In this document: positions 30,178 to 39,110 of the stretch, in pieces
Numbering within the stretch: the stretch's first letter is position 1
Layout: every line of letters starts with the position of its first letter
Source of the DNA: a virus
Length of the DNA stretch: 39,643 nucleotides
Direction: 5' to 3' (one strand)
Virus genome (UHGV): UHGV-0215940
Position numbers and translations under genes: made by a program
The notes under the pieces: generated by a model
Seen by the model: only the letters and a program-made list of their open reading frames with translations
What the model was told of the DNA's origin: nothing
Databases searched by the model: none

Positions 30178-31938
30178 TCACCACTCAATGAAAGACGTAC
30201 CGTAACCCTCATCGTCCTCAGAGTACACATCAACTCCTCCTACAGACATCTCAATGATGTGCGTAGCAGCCACTGTAGGACGCATCATGTGTTCCTCAAG
30301 GAAGTCAGCAAGCACTTCACCTTCGACCTTAACGGAATCCAACTGCATGGACTCACGGAGATACTCAATGCCTAACGCAAGGGCATCCAATCGGTCATCA
30401 TGGGCCAGAGCACCTTTCTCACGAGTGATACGGGTCATCTGGTAGAACAGCGAGTACTTAACGTCATGCTTACCGTCTACATCACGAGCGGACTGATAGT
30501 CGGCCCTAATGACCTCATCACGAATGACAAGGCGGTGAGTCTGCATGACTGGCTCAAGAGTATCACAAATACGCATCTCCTTCATACCACGAGCACGAAT
30601 CTCTTCCATAGCGCAGTTGTGGTGTTTAAGAAGGATAGGACTGAACACCTTACCGAACATACCGTCACCGAAGTTACTCTCGTAGACAACCGTCTGGACT
30701 CCCCATTGCTTCGCTTTCTTAGCGAGCAACTCAAGGGTCTTATCGGAGTAGCCATCACGGAAACCTCCAGCTTCCATCAGGTAGATGTAACCGTTCAGTG
30801 TGTACAGCACAGCGTAACCTGTTTCGTCCTTACCGCGACCACTAGGGTCAATGACCAGAATCTTCTGTTGGTACTGACCTGAGTTGTTGGAGCAATCATG
30901 ATAGGTATGCAGGTCATCACCCTTAAGACCCACGTTAGGAAGGTCCTCAATGATGTTCTGACGGTTCGGAAGCCACTGGTAATGCATTGGGGCCTTCTCT
31001 AAGTCTAAGGCCGCTACGATAGCGTCACGGAGCCTCAGAGGATACTTCTCGGCATCACTCAGGTTCGGGTTAAGCATGAACTGTAACGTAAAGCCAGCCT
31101 TACCGTATTCCAACTCACGCTCACGTAGGTCATCACGGTCGAAGCGCACAGGGTCTGTTGGAGTCCCAGCGAGTGCCTCAGGGTTCTCATCGTACTCAGC
31201 GCGCAACATAGGAGCAAGACGCTGTGAGTAGTAGAGGTTCTCTTCGCGTGTCCTTGGATACAGAGCAGGCCAGATAATGGTTGTATACCCACGGTTATCC
31301 TCAAGTTCCTTATAGAGAGTCATCTCAGTCTGAGGTGTGCCAAGGTAGATAACGCGAGAGGAAGGCAGTGGTTTAAGTAATGCAGCGAACTCCTGAACGA
31401 GAGTCCAGAGCTTCTCACGGGCACCCATAGTCGCACTGTTAGACGGAATCTCAACGTCATCCGCAATGATAATGTCAGCACGGCTACCAGTTAACTGACC
31501 AGTGATACCTACTGATTTCACACTAGGAGAGTGGTCAGGCTTAGCGGGTCCAACGTCAAAGCTGATTACAGAGTCACGCTGTCCGGGTCTTGGCTTTAGC
31601 TCAGCAAGGAATGGGAGCAGGTCAATGATGTTCTTAATGAATATGGAGTTAGCGTCTGCACGTTCCTTAGAGGCTGATACAATGAGTATCTTCAACTGAG
31701 GGTCTCTCCATAAGGACCACACAACGAACGCACATGTGATGAACGACTTACCGATACCACGGAAAGCCTGTAGGATGAACTTCTTGTTGTCTCCATTCGC
31801 CAGCACCTTAGCCATGTCAATCTGACACTTAGTGGGCACCGGAAGGTTTAACGCCTTCCATAAGACGAACAGGAACGCCACGAAGTCTCCTTTCAGTTGC
31901 GCCACTACGAGCGCATTACGATTGGATTGAGTAGACAC
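30178..31938 (-). CDS. 19: Terminase large subunit / DNA maturase B (gp19)
   Basis: 586 aa, with an ATPase Walker A-like region and a C-terminal nuclease domain; T7 gp19 is 586 aa. Confidence 0.97.
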
Positions 31939-31947
31939 GTTGCCTCC

Positions 31948-32391
31948 TTACTTGATTTCCTGCTTACGTTGCAGTTCACGAATAGTATCCTGTAACGCAC
32001 GAATCCATGCGTCACCTTTCTGGGTCACTGCGAGAATACGCTTAGCATCTCGGTCGTCAAGTTCGGCTCTACCATCAGGCTCGAATCCACACTGACCATC
32101 GGAGGTTCCGGTAGTTTTGACTCTGACACGCAGCCGCTTATTGTCGCTACGCAAATCAGAAATAATCCTATCAGTGCTCCCTTCCAGCGCGGCAAGGTTT
32201 TCTTGATACTTAGCCGATATTTCATTGATTGCTCTTTGAGTGCTCGCCGTAGCCTCAACTCTCTTAACGTACTCATTGTGTACCTCCTGTTTCCATTTAG
32301 AGTCCATTGAGTCTGACCCTAGATGCCATCCTAATCCGAATAGCATCCCAGCGAGAACCCAAGGGATTAGCTTACGTAAAAATTGCAGCAT
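31948..32391 (-). CDS. 18.5: Rz-like i-spanin (gp18.5)
   Basis: 147 aa, N-terminal TM segment MLQFLRKLIPWVLAGMLFGLGW, then coiled coil. Confidence 0.9.
   Translation of the reverse strand: MLQFLRKLIPWVLAGMLFGLGWHLGSDSMDSKWKQEVHNEYVKRVEATASTQRAINEISAKYQENLAALEGSTDRIISDLRSDNKRLRVRVKTTGTSDGQCGFEPDGRAELDDRDAKRILAVTQKGDAWIRALQDTIRELQRKQEIK
32025..32276 (-). CDS. 18.7: Rz1-like o-spanin lipoprotein (gp18.7), embedded in the +1 frame of 18.5
   Basis: 83 aa with lipobox LICVATISGC; embedded gene geometry as in T7. Confidence 0.8.
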   Translation of the reverse strand: MSTLRELRLRRALKEQSMKYRLSIKKTLPRWKGALIGLFLICVATISGCVSESKLPEPPMVSVDSSLMVEPNLTTEMLSVFSQ

Positions 32392-32446: not shown

Positions 32447-32489
32447 CATCCATAAAGACCACTATATGTAGTGGCCTTGAGTATATCAC
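32447..32489 (-). promoter_or_regulatory. RNase III hairpin R18.5
   Basis: catccataaagaccactatatgtagtggccttgagtatatcac. Confidence 0.55.
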
Positions 32490-32755
32490 TGTAATGTGTA
32501 AATATCGTCATCCGTAAGACCGTTATCACCGACTTTCTCTTTGTACTCTTCAAGAGCACCAGCAAGTCCACCCAAGATGTGAACATCCGGCTGCAACTTA
32601 CCAATCTGGAACTTGTGGCGGTCTAACAGTTTGTTAATAGCATTATAGAGTTGCGGGGAACGACGTTCAGGGTCCGAAAGGTCCGCAAGCATACGCTGAG
32701 CCATCGCAGTGTCCAACATCTCTAAGAATGTAATAAGGCTCTTATCCTTTTCCAT
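32486..32755 (-). CDS. 18: Terminase small subunit / DNA maturase A (gp18)
   Basis: ATG at 32753-32755 with AAGGAG SD; 89 aa MEKDKSLITFLEMLDTAMAQRMLADLSD. Confidence 0.85.
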   Translation of the reverse strand: MEKDKSLITFLEMLDTAMAQRMLADLSDPERRSPQLYNAINKLLDRHKFQIGKLQPDVHILGGLAGALEEYKEKVGDNGLTDDDIYTLQ

Positions 32756-32760
32756 ATGTA

Positions 32761-32964
32761 TCACTCCTTATTGGCTCTCTTCCAGTCAATCATCTTATCG
32801 ACTACCTTGGCACCAATCTGAACCACTGTGTAGGCAATAGCGGCAACGTAGAACCACTCATTAAGACTCAGCCCGAAGAAAAGCCTCGCAGCGCCATCAG
32901 CCACACCTGTACCAACAATAGGTGCCGCCTTGACTAACTCATTGTTAAAATCTAAAGACAGCAT
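32761..32964 (-). CDS. 17.5: Class II holin (gp17.5)
   Basis: 67 aa MLSLDFNNELVKAAPIVGTGVADGAARLFFGLSLNEWFYVAAIAYTVVQIGAKVVDKMIDWKRANKE with a single TM segment. Confidence 0.9.
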   Translation of the reverse strand: MLSLDFNNELVKAAPIVGTGVADGAARLFFGLSLNEWFYVAAIAYTVVQIGAKVVDKMIDWKRANKE

Positions 32965-33017
32965 GTGTCCTCCTTGTGAGAGTCCTTCCGTGGACTACAC
33001 GTCTTTCCTTGATATGA

Positions 33018-33395
33018 TTATTCCAGACCCTTCAACTCAGCCATGAGTTTCAGTAAGTCCTGCTCAATGTCCTCCTTAGTTCGCTTCTTGGTTTCTTCTG
33101 GTGCGTGGAAAGTCTTACCATCCCAAATACACCCTCTCCAGTTATCAGAGAACTCGAAGGAATCAGCCACAATAATGGTTCCTCCTTCTACTGGGACGTA
33201 CAGGCCAGACACTGGGCCGTCAGTGGCCCACATAACGTCTCCTTTAGGACCAACACCAACTACCCACGTCTCAGGTCGTACGTCTAGCTCATCCATTAAA
33301 GCGTACCAGTCAACGCCATTAAGGTCGTGGATTTCATAGATTGGTTTGCCCAAGTAAACCCCTTCGGTCCACTTCCAGTTAGTAAATACTCGCAT
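33018..33395 (-). CDS. Hypothetical 125-aa protein downstream of the tail fibre, with no T7 counterpart; possible tail-fibre accessory or chaperone
   Basis: ATG preceded by AAGGAGGAA SD, where the gene 17 TAA forms part of the SD; MRVFTNWKWTEGVYLGKPIYEIHDLNGVDWYALMDELD...KEDIEQDLLKLMAELKGLE. Confidence 0.65.
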   Translation of the reverse strand: MRVFTNWKWTEGVYLGKPIYEIHDLNGVDWYALMDELDVRPETWVVGVGPKGDVMWATDGPVSGLYVPVEGGTIIVADSFEFSDNWRGCIWDGKTFHAPEETKKRTKEDIEQDLLKLMAELKGLE

Positions 33396-33404
33396 GGTTC
33401 CTCC

Positions 33405-35081
33405 TTACTGAGACGCAATGATTCTTTTCGTGCCGTTATGAAACCCCAACCACACTGGTCTTACTTGAATACCTTGAACACTTCCGTTAGAAGTGGTTGT
33501 ACCTGTTTGGACATGACCGGATGGAGCCAAGTTATCCATATAGCCACCATATGTTTGTTGCCACACCCCAGGACCTAGGTATACATCCCCTATGAAATGT
33601 CTTCGAACCCAGTCATCAAGGTATCCATCATCATACACAGAGCCGGATAAACGACCGTCCCCTGTGAACATAGCCCCGCCGTGCAGCCTAACACTACCAG
33701 AGATCAACTGTCGTGAGGCGTTAACATCCATTGGGGACCAAAAGCTACCGTCTCCGTCGAATGTCCACACTCTAACGTTACCACCCTCATCTGTAAACAT
33801 GATGTTCCATACGTTCTTACCGTCACCTTGAACTAGGATTCCTTGGTGCCATGCTTTGGCATCCACACCTGATTGGTAGGAGCGCTGTTTAATGAGTGGG
33901 AAGTATTCGTTACGAACCCCATCTGGCACAGTTCCCCATAATGGGGCATTCTCGTTCCACTGTCCTGCGTGAGACCTGTCTCCGGTCCATCCCGTCTGGA
34001 TGTCCCTTACATGGTATGTTCTACTGTCGAACTTGGTGTAATTATTCCCACTAGCATCATAGACTAAAGTTGAAAAGGCGCGTCCTGTACCTGCTCCACG
34101 CTCAAGTACAAAGTCGTAGAAAAGGTTGCCGGAACCATCTCGCCAAAGACCAGAGCGATACATGTCTCCTTCCGTTGTATTGGAAAGTATCTGTATGCTT
34201 TGTCTCCAGACGAGGCTTCCCTTAAAGAATACAGTTGTACCAATAACATTGTCGATAGCACCAGCAAGTGCGTTCCAGTTTCCCAGCTTGTCTGCTTCCT
34301 GCTTCGCTCGGTCTGCTTGCTGTTTTGAAGAAGCCGCAGAATCCGCTGAGGCCGTAGCTGAGTTCTCAGCGTTCACCTCAGATTGATGTGCGGCAGTGGC
34401 AGAGTTACCAGCAGATGTGGCAAATTGACCAGCCGTATTCTTGAACTGCTCAGCTTCATCGCGGAACCCCTTAGCATCATCACGCCACTGCTTTGTGTTA
34501 GCAGCGTTGGTACCAGACTCGTTCTTAAAGCCTTCCGCTTGGTTTCGGAAAGTCTCAGCCTCATTACGGAACTGTAGGGCCTCATTACGAGCCTGCCATG
34601 AGTTCTGGTTCATGGTCTTAAGTTGACCAAACGGAACAGCGTCACGGTCATCCACGGCGTTCGCTAGGTTGACAATTCGACGACCACGCGCATCCAAGTG
34701 ACCATCGTTATTGACACCGATAGTATCAGCAGTTAGGTCACGGGCCTCTTCCGCTACGTGCATCGTTTGAATCTGGGCGACGTTAAGGTCATACGCACGG
34801 AGGATAGAGCCGTCCGTAAAGTCAACCAATCTGTCGGTCGTGGAGGTTACTCGGCGCAACTCGATGGTCGTGTAGCCATCGGCTGGACCCCAAGCCTTGG
34901 TCAGAGAGATGGTAGTACGTGTAGCAAAGCGATAGTCTGTATTAATCGTAAGGACCTTACGGTCTACGCCAATAAGAGTTACCACTACGAACTTACGTGC
35001 TAGATACTCAAACGGGATATTAAAATCACGAGTGGAGCCATCTAACTGGTAAGTCAAAACGGTTTTAATTACGTTAGCCAT
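33405..35081 (-). CDS. 17: Tail fibre protein (gp17); the N-terminal part is T7-like and the C-terminal receptor-binding part (about 290 aa) is not
   Basis: 558 aa; MANVIKTVLTYQLDGSTRDFNIPFEYLARKF... through the coiled-coil region is T7-like, then diverges after ...KLGNWNALAGAID into an unrelated domain ending ...GIQVRPVWLGFHNGTKRIIASQ. Confidence 0.95.
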   Translation of the reverse strand: MANVIKTVLTYQLDGSTRDFNIPFEYLARKFVVVTLIGVDRKVLTINTDYRFATRTTISLTKAWGPADGYTTIELRRVTSTTDRLVDFTDGSILRAYDLNVAQIQTMHVAEEARDLTADTIGVNNDGHLDARGRRIVNLANAVDDRDAVPFGQLKTMNQNSWQARNEALQFRNEAETFRNQAEGFKNESGTNAANTKQWRDDAKGFRDEAEQFKNTAGQFATSAGNSATAAHQSEVNAENSATASADSAASSKQQADRAKQEADKLGNWNALAGAIDNVIGTTVFFKGSLVWRQSIQILSNTTEGDMYRSGLWRDGSGNLFYDFVLERGAGTGRAFSTLVYDASGNNYTKFDSRTYHVRDIQTGWTGDRSHAGQWNENAPLWGTVPDGVRNEYFPLIKQRSYQSGVDAKAWHQGILVQGDGKNVWNIMFTDEGGNVRVWTFDGDGSFWSPMDVNASRQLISGSVRLHGGAMFTGDGRLSGSVYDDGYLDDWVRRHFIGDVYLGPGVWQQTYGGYMDNLAPSGHVQTGTTTSNGSVQGIQVRPVWLGFHNGTKRIIASQ

Positions 35082-35133: not shown

Positions 35134-35156
35134 TCTCCCTATAGTGAGTCGTATTA
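35134..35156 (-). promoter_or_regulatory. T7 RNAP promoter phi17
   Basis: tctccctatagtgagtcgtatta; overlaps the gene 16 stop; transcript 5' hairpin GGGAGAGGCGAAAGAAUCUUCUCCC. Confidence 0.9.
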
Positions 35157-38100
35157 TTTCCTACGTTCCCTCAGGTTAACACCGTTCGCCTCATAAATCT
35201 TCAACACAAGCTGTTGCGTCAAGGGGTCGTTCGGTACTAACTCTTTTGTGGAGTTCATAAGACCAGTCATGAAGTCCTGCTCAGTGGCTTTGTTGGGAGC
35301 ATTCACCACGCCAGCAGTATTAAGCAGGGAAGCCCCAACGTTAGCCACAAATCCAGCCGATGGCATCTGTTCAAGAATGTTGGAACCCATATTACCCATT
35401 ACCTCCCACGAGGTATAAGGCTTATTAGGGTCACGCTCCTTCACGGTGTCTTTAGGTAGAATCGTAGAGCGGGCCATCTTTGAGGACTCAACCCCGAACA
35501 GTCCACCAACTAGGTCAGCCATAGCCAAAGGAGCACCCAATTGAGAACTACGAGACAACGAAGCGTGGGCAATCATGGTTGGGTCCAGTGCTCGCTCCAA
35601 GTACTCCTTACGTTTCTCCTTAGGCATCCCATACGCTTTGACGTGTGCAGCCATAGCGTAGTAACCTCCAGCGAGACCCATAGAGATGATACCAGTCAGC
35701 GCAGCGTCAATCGCTCGGTTGTTCTTGTATCCATCATAGAAGGTTCGCAGGAACTTAGAGTTAAGGGACTTGATAGTGAAAGACTTAAACTGCATGACCA
35801 TCTTACCCAATGCTCCGAACGCATGGGAATCCTGTAAGGAAACCTTATGCGGACGCAGCATTGCCTCATCAGCTACCTTGTCAGCCAGTCGCCATAAGTC
35901 CATAGCCCGTGGGTCCATAGAGAACGCTTGCTTGTCCTTAACGGTAAACTTCCCGTCCTCACCACGTACCATATGCTCCTTGATGAGAGACTTGATTCCA
36001 GCCATCTGCTCAGGAGTTACGGATGCGCCACGAAGGAAGCCTTCTTTCTCCCAGCGGGTAGTCTTACCTGTTAGGGTGGCGCTAATAACATCCCCAAGCA
36101 TACCTTGACGCGCAGCATCCAGAAGGTAGTTAGTGGTTCCGTTCAGTAGCTTAGTCCACGGAGAGCGAGCAGCCAGTTCCTGTGTGGAGTACTTCAAGGT
36201 CCCTACGATGTTCGCCACAGCAGGTCCGGTATCAGTTGCTTCCCTTAGGCGCTGCACAATGTCAGCACGTTTAGGCCGAATCAACTGGTCCACCTCCTTC
36301 CCGAACAGAGACGCATGGAGTTCCTTGAGTTCCTTGGCGGAAACTGGTTTAGACTTGTAGAGGGTATCACGTAGAATTGGAATACCGTGACCAAGAGCAC
36401 GCACGTTACCAGTGGCAATCATCCCAGCAATCTCCGTAATGTTCTGAGCACCCATGTAGGCGTTCTTAGCGAAGAACCCTAGGTCATTGATGGAACGCAG
36501 TGAGGTTTCCCACACAGTGTCCTGATTGCGTCTAGCACGCCCAGTAAGAATCTTAACGGTATCCATGAGAGCATGTACCTCGCCAGTCTTCTTACCGTCT
36601 CCCTCAGCTTTCGCTTTGAGAGCCAAAATCTCATCCTTAAGTTCCTTAGTGGTTTTACCAGTAGACCCCATGATGGCGATGTCACCGTTGATACGGCGGT
36701 CATACGCTGGCATGATGCGGAACATATCGAAGTCCCTTAGGTCGTTCACTGAGAATTGCTGTCCGTCTGGCATAGTGATGGATAGGTCAGAATCAAACAA
36801 GTTACGTGCCTCAAGGAATGAGTTGTTCTCAATACCTACTAAGCCCTCAATGTTCTCTTCGATTATGGAACTGTTGGTGAACTGGTCTGAGTGAGAGATA
36901 CCGTAAGCCTTATCCATAGCGTACTTCTCTACCATCTCTGGCGTTACTTCCTTCACCCCGTGTACTTCCTTAAGCATCTCATCGACTCTGGCCTTGACCT
37001 CAGGTCTGGAGACGTAGCTGTTCATCCACGAACGAGCAATACCTTCCTGTAAACCTTCGGCACCGTAGCGTTGAATCATCAGCGCCTTGGCGTGACGGTC
37101 GTATACGTGAGGAACGTAGGTTCCCTTATGACGACTCTCAGGGAAGATACTCACAGCCTTCGTATTACCGAAGATTGCGGGATTCTCCATGAGTTCACGC
37201 TTGGTGTCAAAGTGACGCTTAATGATGTCCATAACGATTCTCTCAGACGGAGTGAGTGACCTCTGCAACTCTGGGCGCTCAATAGCTAATGCCGCTCTAC
37301 GGTAGATAGTGTATCGAGTCTCTTCGCGAGACATCTTAGCACCACCAGTAGAGAACTCAGGGTCTTTCATAGCGTCAGACATTGCTTTGTACAAGTCATT
37401 ATAAGTACGCTGGTCAGTACCGTGAAGTCTCTCGTGGATGTCAGAAGCTGTTGCACCGAACTTACCTGAGGCACCAGACTGCATACCAGTAGGAGAGCGA
37501 ACGAGGTCGATAGCCACTCTACGGATGTCAGCATCGTCAGACCCCAAGGTCTTCAAGCCTATCTCGGTGAACCCAGCAAGTTTGATTCCTCGCGCAGCCT
37601 TCTCAGGGTCAACCTCGGAGAACTCTTGGAGAGTCTTAGGGTTGATTGGGTTGCTTGCACTCAGAACGGAGCCGTCATGCAACACCACGGCACCTTTCTC
37701 TGTTGGTAAATCCTCATAAGGGACACCATTATGTTCACCTTCAAACTTCATGTTCTCAGTGTTCATCCGAGAGAGGTCCGCAGAGTTGGCGTTACGCGCT
37801 GTCTCACGGGCTTCCATCCGCATCATAGGGCCAATGAACTCATTATCGAACTCAGCTTCTGGTTTGCTACGTTTCAGGCCAGCAGCTACAGCGTCACTGA
37901 TTGCAGACATACCAGCGCCAAACAAAAAGCCACCTAAGGCCGAACCAGCATAGTCTGCATCACCACCAGCTACGGAGGTACGGAGACCTTCGGATGCAAC
38001 GTTCAGAGCAGCACTTTCGGCACCAACCACAAGAGCCTTATTGATTAACTTAAAGCCCTTACCAGTGACACCGACCATAGGAACATAGCTAAGTGGGTCC

Positions 38101-39110
38101 ACACCAGCACCAATAATACCAGCACTCAGTTTGGCACCTAGGCCAGCTTCGGCAGCGCGGGAGTCATTCTCAAAGTTATCGTTAGCCAGCTTAATGAGGT
38201 CGTCAAGATTCTCAGGGGAACCACCAGTTACCACGTTGATATACGCAGGGTTCTTAACCTCTGTTCGAATCTTCTCTAACTCTTCTGGAGTCCAGATGTG
38301 AGAGTTCCAGCGAGTCGGAGTAATGGTGTCTTTAAACACATCAAAACCATTATCGAGACGACCAGCACGGAAAGCCATTCCAGCGACTGAGTTGGAGAGT
38401 TCAGCTTCGGCAGCGTCTTTGAATCCGAAGAAGGTTGAACGACTGTTGTACTCGTCAAGTGTTTCTCCGTGGGTCTCCCAAAAGTCCTTGGCGAATGGTT
38501 TCGCCGGAGCCTCCTGTTCGATACCCTTAACGTCAAAACTCGTGGACTCAGGTAGTTCCTGTGTCACCTTCTGCTTGTGACCAATACCAGCCAATCCTAC
38601 CTCAGCCGGAATGCCTTTACCCTTTGGGGTGATGCCTCCAAAAGTTTCCAACTGTCCAGCCATAGGTGACTTAGCGACATCCAGAAGGTTACGCATGTAG
38701 TTACGCCCCTCCTCAGAGATTGACGCGAAGTCTCCCTTAGAGTACGCCTCAAGTTGTGGATTACCCAAGCGTCCCTCGCCTTGGTTGTACGCAAGGGCAG
38801 CTTTGAGTTCGTCACCATCGAATTTACCCACCAGACCTGCAAGGTGCTTAGCGGCAGCATTGATGGCTAACTCAGGGTTCAGTCGGTCGTCGTCTGGACC
38901 ATCGGTAACTCGCAGGCCGAGGGCCTTAGCTGTTGCCTTGGTAAATTGCATCATGCCTAATGGTCCAGTCTTAGATTTTGCTGTAGGCACAAATCGTGAT
39001 TCTGTCCAAGCGACTTTACGTAAAAGGTCATAAGAGACCCCGTTGGCATCAGCAGCCTTTTGGAACAGACCATCATATTCACTTGGTACGTTCTTATCGT
39101 ACTTATCCAT
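35154..39110 (-). CDS. 16: Internal virion protein D (gp16) with N-terminal lytic transglycosylase domain
   Basis: 1318 aa; N-terminal SLT motif region ...GPLGMMQFTKATAKALG...; T7 gp16 is 1318 aa. Confidence 0.97.
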   Translation of the reverse strand: MDKYDKNVPSEYDGLFQKAADANGVSYDLLRKVAWTESRFVPTAKSKTGPLGMMQFTKATAKALGLRVTDGPDDDRLNPELAINAAAKHLAGLVGKFDGDELKAALAYNQGEGRLGNPQLEAYSKGDFASISEEGRNYMRNLLDVAKSPMAGQLETFGGITPKGKGIPAEVGLAGIGHKQKVTQELPESTSFDVKGIEQEAPAKPFAKDFWETHGETLDEYNSRSTFFGFKDAAEAELSNSVAGMAFRAGRLDNGFDVFKDTITPTRWNSHIWTPEELEKIRTEVKNPAYINVVTGGSPENLDDLIKLANDNFENDSRAAEAGLGAKLSAGIIGAGVDPLSYVPMVGVTGKGFKLINKALVVGAESAALNVASEGLRTSVAGGDADYAGSALGGFLFGAGMSAISDAVAAGLKRSKPEAEFDNEFIGPMMRMEARETARNANSADLSRMNTENMKFEGEHNGVPYEDLPTEKGAVVLHDGSVLSASNPINPKTLQEFSEVDPEKAARGIKLAGFTEIGLKTLGSDDADIRRVAIDLVRSPTGMQSGASGKFGATASDIHERLHGTDQRTYNDLYKAMSDAMKDPEFSTGGAKMSREETRYTIYRRAALAIERPELQRSLTPSERIVMDIIKRHFDTKRELMENPAIFGNTKAVSIFPESRHKGTYVPHVYDRHAKALMIQRYGAEGLQEGIARSWMNSYVSRPEVKARVDEMLKEVHGVKEVTPEMVEKYAMDKAYGISHSDQFTNSSIIEENIEGLVGIENNSFLEARNLFDSDLSITMPDGQQFSVNDLRDFDMFRIMPAYDRRINGDIAIMGSTGKTTKELKDEILALKAKAEGDGKKTGEVHALMDTVKILTGRARRNQDTVWETSLRSINDLGFFAKNAYMGAQNITEIAGMIATGNVRALGHGIPILRDTLYKSKPVSAKELKELHASLFGKEVDQLIRPKRADIVQRLREATDTGPAVANIVGTLKYSTQELAARSPWTKLLNGTTNYLLDAARQGMLGDVISATLTGKTTRWEKEGFLRGASVTPEQMAGIKSLIKEHMVRGEDGKFTVKDKQAFSMDPRAMDLWRLADKVADEAMLRPHKVSLQDSHAFGALGKMVMQFKSFTIKSLNSKFLRTFYDGYKNNRAIDAALTGIISMGLAGGYYAMAAHVKAYGMPKEKRKEYLERALDPTMIAHASLSRSSQLGAPLAMADLVGGLFGVESSKMARSTILPKDTVKERDPNKPYTSWEVMGNMGSNILEQMPSAGFVANVGASLLNTAGVVNAPNKATEQDFMTGLMNSTKELVPNDPLTQQLVLKIYEANGVNLRERRK

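Follow-up and report, generated by a model that had tools for sequence, protein, structure and literature searches.

A probable exchanged fibre-tip and Tfa-like chaperone cassette in the T7-like virus genome UHGV-0215940

Exchange of the C-terminus of the tail fibre protein gp17 is routine in Teseptimavirus (PMC11990801; PMC13611991), and in the Teseptimavirus EmilieLinder (Bas103) gp17 is found with a separate Mu-like tail fibre assembly (Tfa) protein, the two being predicted to form a 3:3 complex (PMC11990801, S7 Fig). The BASEL Teseptimaviruses Bas102-104 depend on the O16 O-antigen (PMC11990801). In other systems, T4 gp38 is not incorporated into the virion (PMC9608196), and the Tfa of phage Mu (TfaMu) stays on the mature Mu fibre, where it possibly contacts lipopolysaccharide (PMC10579305). 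Here we analysed the 39,643-nt UHGV virus genome UHGV-0215940 (the whole stretch is called the window below), which shows a T7-like (Teseptimavirus) genome in reverse complement, and focused on the end of its gene 17 together with a 125-residue open reading frame (ORF) directly downstream; all genes of this region lie on the minus strand.

We consider it highly probable that this region is an exchanged fibre-tip plus Tfa-like chaperone cassette in a Teseptimavirus backbone. Computationally, this reading is carried by the anatomy and breakpoints of the locus, by the fold and homology of its two products, by their co-variation across phages and by purifying selection on the small gene.

Breakpoints and segments of the gp17 C-terminus

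The N-terminal part of gp17 carries a T7-type tail-attachment domain, with a match to Pfam Phage_T7_tail (PF03906) on residues 1-162 (E = 8.1e-74), and PHROG 4242 matches the protein over its full length. BLASTP against T7 gp17 gave 91% identity over residues 1-290, in keeping with the original prediction for this locus, made from the sequence alone, that the fibre is T7-like to about residue 290 (the peptide strings quoted there are present as well). At the nucleotide level, homology to T7 (90.2%, blastn) stops at 34217, around codon 289, and returns (91.7%) at 33011, within the 17/17.5 spacer and 7 nt past the stop codon of the 125-residue ORF, and the non-T7 block is therefore 33012..34216. 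The region originally proposed as swapped (32965..34215) agrees with this block almost exactly, and the sharp breakpoints against T7 at both ends confirm that the fibre C-terminus was exchanged. The T7 part that it replaces comprises gene 17 codons ~289-553 and 11 nt of spacer; the place of the 125-residue ORF is taken in T7 by a 58-nt spacer that contains no ORF, so that the small gene, together with its Shine-Dalgarno sequence, is indeed present here without a T7 homolog. A motif ADKLGNxNxLAGAI (gp17 residues ~266-289, 34215..34286) coincides with the breakpoint before residue 290.

Beyond residue 290, BLASTP against T7 gp17 found a single weak 46-residue stretch (28% identity, E = 0.006) at a junction motif described below, and a tblastn search of 50,697 phage records with the C-terminal 269 residues of gp17 returned 31 records, none of which is T7 or T3. 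By BLAST, then, the claim of a C-terminus unrelated to the T7 or T3 tip stands, and nothing aligns with T7 gp17 at high identity; by profile comparison it has to be qualified, as the junction motif and part of the tip can be distantly aligned with T7 gp17 437-502 (hhalign E = 4.5e-6; PDB 4A0T, E = 0.011). The C-terminal pyramid and tip domains of T7 as seen in 4A0T were not recovered in gp17. A word-indexed protein search with the fibre C-terminus, run both as a single sequence and as an 11-sequence alignment, gave no matches, which does not imply absence (the collection searched does contain the exact gp17, with 24 cluster mates).

Alignment of 15 fibres that are accompanied by the small gene (those of the window, Pila, N30, CQ615, AV103, C5, UFV01, Bas104, D226, Koku, YSYH, GP-5, K19PH14C4P1, pEp_SNUABM_03 and the T4-like Erwinia phage Cronus) divides the gp17 C-terminus into two segments, a middle domain (residues 291-467) and a tip (residues 468-558). 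The middle domain occurs as divergent allelic types, with identities to the window of 90% in Pila, 55-56% in Koku and YSYH, 35% in D226, ~24% in the group of N30, CQ615 and AV103, and less than 10% in Cronus, GP-5 and pEp_SNUABM_03 (pEp03). A profile of this domain found no match in the PDB, in T7 gp17 (E = 0.24) or in Mu S.

The tip, by comparison, is homologous in 15 of 15 fibres, including the long tail fibre of Cronus, and closes with the motif (F/Y)xNGxxxI(I/V)AS(Q/T). Its profile aligns over 85 columns with residues 414-503 of the 504-residue Mu S protein (hhalign E = 4.8e-5, 34% identity, probability 68%), and the alignment contains the motifs APSGHV.TG, RPV and the terminal NG...AS that identify a Mu S-type tip; negative controls (unrelated window proteins, Mu S' and lambda Stf) gave E = 0.28-0.45. 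The tip also aligned with the end of the Bas103 fibre (E = 3.6e-6), and a HMMER search of the PDB with it returned chain 5yvq_A weakly (E = 4.1). The middle domain, the tip, or both probably carry the receptor specificity.

Comparing the window with Pila, we observed a non-synonymous rate (dN) of 0.196 in the tip (ratio of non-synonymous to synonymous rates, omega, 0.30) vs. 0.06-0.07 (omega 0.11) elsewhere in gp17, so that non-synonymous change has run about three times faster in the tip than in the remainder of the fibre; dN of the adjacent small gene is 0.039.

Fold, family and constraint of the 125-residue protein

An AlphaFold2 model of the 125-residue protein, computed with 12 homologs, reached a predicted local distance difference test (pLDDT) score of 87.5 and consists of a beta-rich domain (residues 1 to ~100) followed by a helix (residues 107-124). 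When this model was compared with the PDB using Foldseek, the top chain was returned at probability 1.0, and the fold match to TfaMu was unique, the N-terminal part of the protein corresponding to the fibre-binding beta-domain of the TfaMu fold. Against BFVD, members of the protein's own family came first, followed by proteins of 157-185 residues, several of which are annotated as tail fiber assembly proteins. Sequence profiles point in the same direction: of the 12 family members, 10 match PHROG 136 ('tail fiber assembly protein'; best E = 1.2e-7), which places the family there, with a weak match for the window protein itself (E = 2.4e-5, profile positions 27-125 of 178), and hhalign aligned the short family with the N-domain of the canonical Bas103 Tfa over 71 columns (E = 4.5e-4).

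At its C-terminus the protein ends in a single amphipathic helix of 18-20 residues (RTKEDIEQDLLKLMAELKGLE), which is the most conserved part of the family. The pattern RTKEDIxxDLxxLxxEL is kept even in the remotest members, and residues I110, L114, L117, L121 and L124 follow, from the sequence, an a/d heptad spacing. This conserved helix parallels the published logic of Tfa proteins, in which a variable fibre-binding N-domain is combined with a conserved, trimerising C-terminal helical region (PMC9608196).

A number of results weigh against a Tfa-like chaperone acting on this tip, and we set them out together. With 125 residues, the protein is 50-70 residues shorter than canonical Tfa proteins (175-194 residues), and it lacks the C-terminal segment ATxEE..L..W..Y..L.RVD..WP found in Mu U, Mu U' and lambda Tfa and, with it, the canonical helical domain, which contains this segment and is credited with Tfa trimerisation (PMC9608196); the terminal helix described above is shorter than that segment and differs from it in sequence. 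Pfam Caudo_TAP (PF02413) matched 0 of 12 family members even at E <= 10, with Mu U (E = 6.7e-37) and Bas103 Tfa (E = 7.9e-10) serving as positive controls, and a Pfam scan assigned no family to the 125-residue protein or its 11 relatives. The family profile found nothing credible among PDB sequences, comparisons with Mu U, Mu U' and lambda Tfa stayed at background level (hhalign E = 0.09-0.18), and an exhaustive HMMER search of 1.84 billion representatives yielded 30 clusters, 28 of them genuine (106-143 residues), without reaching the canonical Tfa family. On the side of the fibre, a single-sequence AlphaFold2 run on gp17 residues 285-558 reached a pLDDT of 36.8 and gave no usable model of the tip. 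T7 has the junction motif as well, and its tip folds with no Tfa; chaperone dependence of the tip in the window is therefore not guaranteed.

Two leads were discarded. Multi-stretch matches of the family profile to two giant proteins (P0031 and P0038, of 5,792 and 1,760 residues) were set aside as leucine-rich-repeat (LRR) artefacts because P0038 is an NLR/LRR-type repeat protein. A label of 'ssDNA-binding protein' (single-stranded DNA) attached to two homologs, from Klebsiella phage vB_KpnP-VAC1 (MZ428229.1, 5959-6342) and Escherichia phage HZP2 (MK542821.1 / NC_048164.1, 197-595), was likewise rejected, as neither the Pfam scan nor the model and fold match of the 125-residue protein support it.

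Because the fold is of the TfaMu type but the length, the C-terminal segment and the sequence searches depart from canonical Tfa, we class the 125-residue protein, on the basis of its modelled structure, as a short Tfa-like chaperone ('mini-Tfa') and not as a canonical Tfa.

Selection on the gene bears on how this shortness should be understood. The ratio of non-synonymous to synonymous substitution rates (dN/dS) of the ORF is 0.10-0.16 in comparisons with Pila, N30, CQ615 and AV103, and it is therefore a real, constrained protein-coding gene. Were the tip to fold autonomously, the small ORF could be a remnant, a shortened Tfa kept by linkage as a non-essential relic, as might be suggested by the missing canonical C-terminal segment, by the failure to match Caudo_TAP and by the finding that the fibre chaperone of Alteromonas phage A5 is dispensable for functional fibres (PMC10579305). 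We judge this very unlikely, as the low dN/dS and a length kept at 113-143 residues across 30 clusters (50% identity) point to a function, the terminal helix hardly varies, and the small gene stands behind all 15 examined fibres that carry the tip.

Co-inheritance and distribution of the tip and the small gene

Across the 15 fibre/small-protein pairs, identity of the small protein follows identity of the tip (Spearman 0.74, Mantel p = 2e-4), and this correlation is still 0.60 in the 57 pairs with middle-domain identity below 25%; the correlation of the small protein with the middle domain is 0.48. Relative to the window, N30, CQ615 and AV103 combine a similar small protein (83-86%) and tip (67-72%) with a different middle domain (~24%), and Koku and YSYH show the reverse, with identities of 44% for the small protein, 41-42% for the tip and 55-56% for the middle domain. 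Consistent with the former pattern, N30-type nucleotide homology returns at 33639 (codon ~481), inside the junction motif.

From these identities and this return of homology it follows that the cassette is a mosaic of two sub-modules, one being the middle domain and the other the tip with the mini-Tfa. The original prediction of one receptor-binding module thus holds insofar as an exchanged cassette is present, and has to be revised insofar as this cassette joins a middle domain to a Mu S-like tip, with the small gene co-inherited with the tip. The conserved junction motif between the sub-modules is probably a recombination site, and, judging from the sequence comparisons, the tip and mini-Tfa appear to behave as one inseparable unit, with a middle domain that can be swapped independently. 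The junction motif itself, G..DG.i.G..y..gyLddWvR (residues ~470-495; residues 468-495 correspond to 33597..33680), coincides with the recombination breakpoint and is common to gp17 of T7, Bas103 and the window.

Homologs of the small protein occur in 56 phage records, where the gene accompanies the fibre tip, in line with the predicted co-transfer; the region as a whole matches 663 records. Apart from ST2, IT22 and Cronus, the listed homolog records have genomes of podovirus size (32-41 kb), and they come from phages of Klebsiella, Escherichia, Erwinia, Pantoea, Serratia, Yersinia and Citrobacter. In 13 of 13 T7-like contexts examined, from several Studiervirinae genera, the small gene has gene 17 and the holin gene as its direct neighbours on either side, and it is found immediately 3' of the fibre gene and on the same strand, the position expected of a Tfa gene, in the window and in 14 of 14 relatives examined. 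In Cronus, a member of the Tevenvirinae, it is flanked by the genes for the distal long tail fibre and the holin, a position that we take, from the gene order of T4, to be the slot of gp38.

Escherichia phage ST2 (OM982647.1) was discounted as an independent myovirus context, being a chimeric partial genome with a T7-like fragment: in this 171-kb record, labelled Kagunavirus, positions 162593-171086 carry a truncated fibre tip, a mini-Tfa, a class II holin and a piece of the small terminase beside unrelated genes, and the record looks chimeric or mis-assembled. Exact matches to the window proteins were found in ENA and Logan assemblies, such as ERZ1304484 NODE_448 (39,772 nt), which has the same gene order, and NCBI has a gp17 of at least 90% identity, from E. 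coli and under the name 'phage tail fiber protein'. Within the short family, the GenBank label 'tail fiber assembly protein' is given to the members from GP-5, K19PH14C4P1 and ZCEA1, and most others are hypothetical.

This distribution also speaks to the possibility that no recombination took place, the gp17 C-terminus being a fast-diverged T7-type tip and the small ORF an accessory gene unrelated to the fibre, with a role in lysis timing, superinfection exclusion or ssDNA binding. Such a view could draw on the weak alignment of the junction motif and part of the tip with T7 gp17 437-502, on the neighbouring holin gene and on the two ssDNA-binding labels mentioned above. It would, however, have to account for the abrupt loss of nucleotide identity at each end of the block, from ~90% to below detection over a few bases, for the recurrence of the same block in several Studiervirinae genera and one Tevenvirinae phage, in each case following a fibre that has this tip, for a fold that is uniquely TfaMu-like, and for the lack of any OB-fold or membrane-protein resemblance in the Pfam scan and the AlphaFold2 model. 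In view of the fold match, the co-variation with the tip and the sharp breakpoints, we regard this explanation as effectively refuted and give it almost no credence.

Expression, proposed assembly and comparison with known systems

Ten T7-type promoters lie on the minus strand, a perfect phi17 among them, and no further T7 promoter was found between phi17 and 30096 (Table 1). The start region of the small ORF reads TAAGGAGGAACCATG; 4 nt separate the Shine-Dalgarno sequence AAGGAGG from the ATG, and the gap between the gp17 stop and the start of the ORF is 9 nt. Since the intervals between gp17, the 125-residue ORF and the holin gene contain no T7 promoter and no convincing terminator, and the Shine-Dalgarno sequence overlaps the gp17 stop codon, the simplest reading of these signals is that gp17 and the small ORF are co-transcribed from phi17 with coupled translation. 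The strong Shine-Dalgarno sequence, the short gap and the promoter would together be expected to give good expression of the small gene, a level that we infer from these signals.

Table 1 Features of the fibre region of the window and its neighbouring genes
Feature	Coordinates	Strand	Remarks
gp16	35154..39110	-	
T7 class III promoter phi17	35134..35156	-	Upstream of gp17; exact 23-mer match to TAATACGACTCACTATAGGGAGA
gp17 (gene 17), tail fibre protein, 558 aa	33405..35081	-	Stop codon included; Pfam Phage_T7_tail; PHROG 4242
gp17 aa 1-289, T7-type tail-attachment domain and coiled-coil shaft	34215..35081	-	91% identity to T7
Non-T7 block	33012..34216	-	1,205 nt in place of 808 nt of T7; blastn breakpoints 34217 and 33011
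gp17 middle domain, aa 291-467	33681..34211	-	Fold without known relative; divergent allelic types; candidate specificity domain
gp17 tip, aa 468-558	33405..33680	-	Mu S type; ends FHNGTKRIIASQ; putative docking site of the 125-aa protein
Shine-Dalgarno AAGGAGG of the 125-aa ORF	33400..33406	-	Overlaps gp17 stop codon; TAAGGAGGAACCATG
125-aa ORF, putative short Tfa-like tail-fibre assembly protein ('mini-Tfa')	33018..33395	-	
C-terminal amphipathic helix of mini-Tfa, aa 105-124	33024..33083	-	RTKEDIEQDLLKLMAELKGL; putative trimerisation element
53-nt spacer before holin 17.5	32965..33017	-	32965..33011 homologous to T7 17/17.5 spacer
Gene 17.5, class II holin	32761..32964	-	T7 backbone, downstream module boundary; Pfam Phage_holin_2_2, E = 1.9e-35
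gp18	32486..32764	-	
18.5	31948..32391	-	
18.7	32025..32276	-	
gp19	30178..31938	-	

On the opposite strand of the small gene, a 98-residue Ser/Pro-rich ORF (33043..33339, plus strand) is open in the window and also in Pila, N30, CQ615 and AV103. Nothing marks it as a gene, and it is most likely a by-product of codon usage on the sense strand.

By analogy with Mu S/U and with Pam3 gp24/gp25 (PMC9608196), three copies of mini-Tfa might dock through their beta-domains on three nascent gp17 chains, at the C-terminal tip, their own C-terminal helices associating into a trimeric bundle. This trimer would bring the chains into register and act as a nucleus for trimerisation and for folding, which would proceed from the distal end of the fibre toward the T7-type shaft. 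Binding, chaperone activity and stoichiometry are inferred, as is an effect on host range. The tip and mini-Tfa, together with the middle domain, would most likely set receptor specificity, and it is plausible that the module determines host range.

Mini-Tfa could instead be mainly a structural component of the tip, an adhesin that is retained on the fibre end and contacts the receptor, as T2/S16-type gp38 does and as has been suggested for TfaMu. Its place in the gp38 slot of Cronus, the retention of TfaMu on the mature fibre with possible contact to lipopolysaccharide (PMC10579305), and its co-variation with the fibre tip would be compatible with this, and such a role could coexist with that of a chaperone, the two not being mutually exclusive. 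Set against it are a dN/dS of 0.10-0.16 with no hypervariable stretches, identities of 83-92% across phages whose fibres differ, a sequence without the glycine-rich motifs or hypervariable segments of gp38 and without a Pfam match, and the fact that the best-conserved part of the protein is a helix of oligomerisation type and no surface loop. An adhesin as its principal role therefore appears unlikely to us.

Building on the chaperone reading, we put forward a broader proposal, tentatively and with somewhat less than even confidence. The 125-residue proteins may constitute a distinct minimal class of fibre chaperones, in which a TfaMu beta-domain is followed by one coiled-coil helix (RTKEDIxxDLxxLxxEL) in place of the Caudo_TAP C-terminal domain; with the ~90-residue Mu S-like tip, they may make up a single folding unit that cannot be divided and that is passed between podoviruses of several Studiervirinae genera and myoviruses of the T4 type. 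The middle domain, as the determinant of specificity, would be exchanged on its own at the conserved junction motif. If this is true, the tip and mini-Tfa would be a portable 'folding cap' with which T7 could be given new fibre domains by engineering.

Engineered switching of host range uses T7 as its main chassis, and fibre swaps often fail, the donor tip needing its own chaperone. The locus described here provides a natural T7 backbone bearing a fibre end with putative chaperone dependence, and it marks natural cut sites after gp17 residue ~289, at the junction near ~470-480, and 7 nt past the chaperone stop codon. In practical terms, it suggests transferring the small gene along with the last ~90 residues of the fibre. 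There is also value for annotation, as the short family is mostly called 'hypothetical' and twice 'ssDNA-binding' among the records examined. The current understanding of phage fibre assembly is unchanged by these results, and the new points are incremental.

How the locus relates to described systems can be summarised as follows. T7 gp17 (pyramid and tip, PDB 4A0T/4A0U) has the same N-terminal 289 residues and shares the junction motif (residues 468-513 of the window fibre vs. 435-480 of T7), whereas the middle domain of the window fibre has no similarity to it, T7 lacks the Mu S-like end motif NG...IIASQ, and the T7 tip needs no separate chaperone gene. To the T4 gp37/gp38 pair the module is linked by the Cronus homolog, located between the distal long-tail-fibre and holin genes; unlike gp38 of T4, T2 and S16, with which no sequence similarity was detected, the 125-residue protein is much smaller and has no glycine-rich adhesin motifs. 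With Mu S/U (TfaMu, PDB 5YVQ) the module shares a tip alignable to the C-terminal 90 residues of Mu S, which were crystallised with TfaMu, and a chaperone gene directly 3' of the fibre gene. It differs in that the 125-residue protein has 12% sequence identity to the 175-residue Mu U, carries neither the Caudo_TAP signature nor the canonical C-terminal segment, and has one short conserved helix, and in that the window phage is a podovirus with a T7 fibre shaft and without an invertible G segment. A 2026 paper on vB_EcoP_S37A was set aside, as it concerns a different phage with a gp17 of the tailspike type.

Among Teseptimavirus relatives, Pila, N30, CQ615 and AV103 have the same backbone and the same order of 16, 17, small ORF and 17.5, and in all four the small gene is annotated as 'hypothetical protein'. 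Serratia phage Pila (MN098329, CPT_Pila_045/046) is the closest relative, with 88% identity in gp17 and 92% in the small protein; its module nevertheless differs, at 86.8% nucleotide identity, and there is no identical record. The N30 group differs in carrying another allele of the middle domain (24% identity). In Bas104 (PQ850595.1), a member of the short family (127 residues, annotated as hypothetical) stands behind gp17, and Bas103 uses the canonical type. Bas103 (PQ850602.1) is T7-like and has a swapped fibre C-terminus with a Tfa gene directly downstream, its fibre junction and tip align with the tip profile of the window, and the N-domain of its Tfa is weakly alignable; the difference is that this Tfa is a canonical 175-residue member of Caudo_TAP, whereas the window protein belongs to the short 125-residue family. 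Exchange of gp17 together with a separate Tfa is thus already known in Teseptimavirus, and the module in the window is a new allele. What may not have been stated before in the literature that we searched is that there is a short family without the canonical Tfa C-terminal domain, and that this family is tied to a Mu S-like tip and can be separated from the middle domain.

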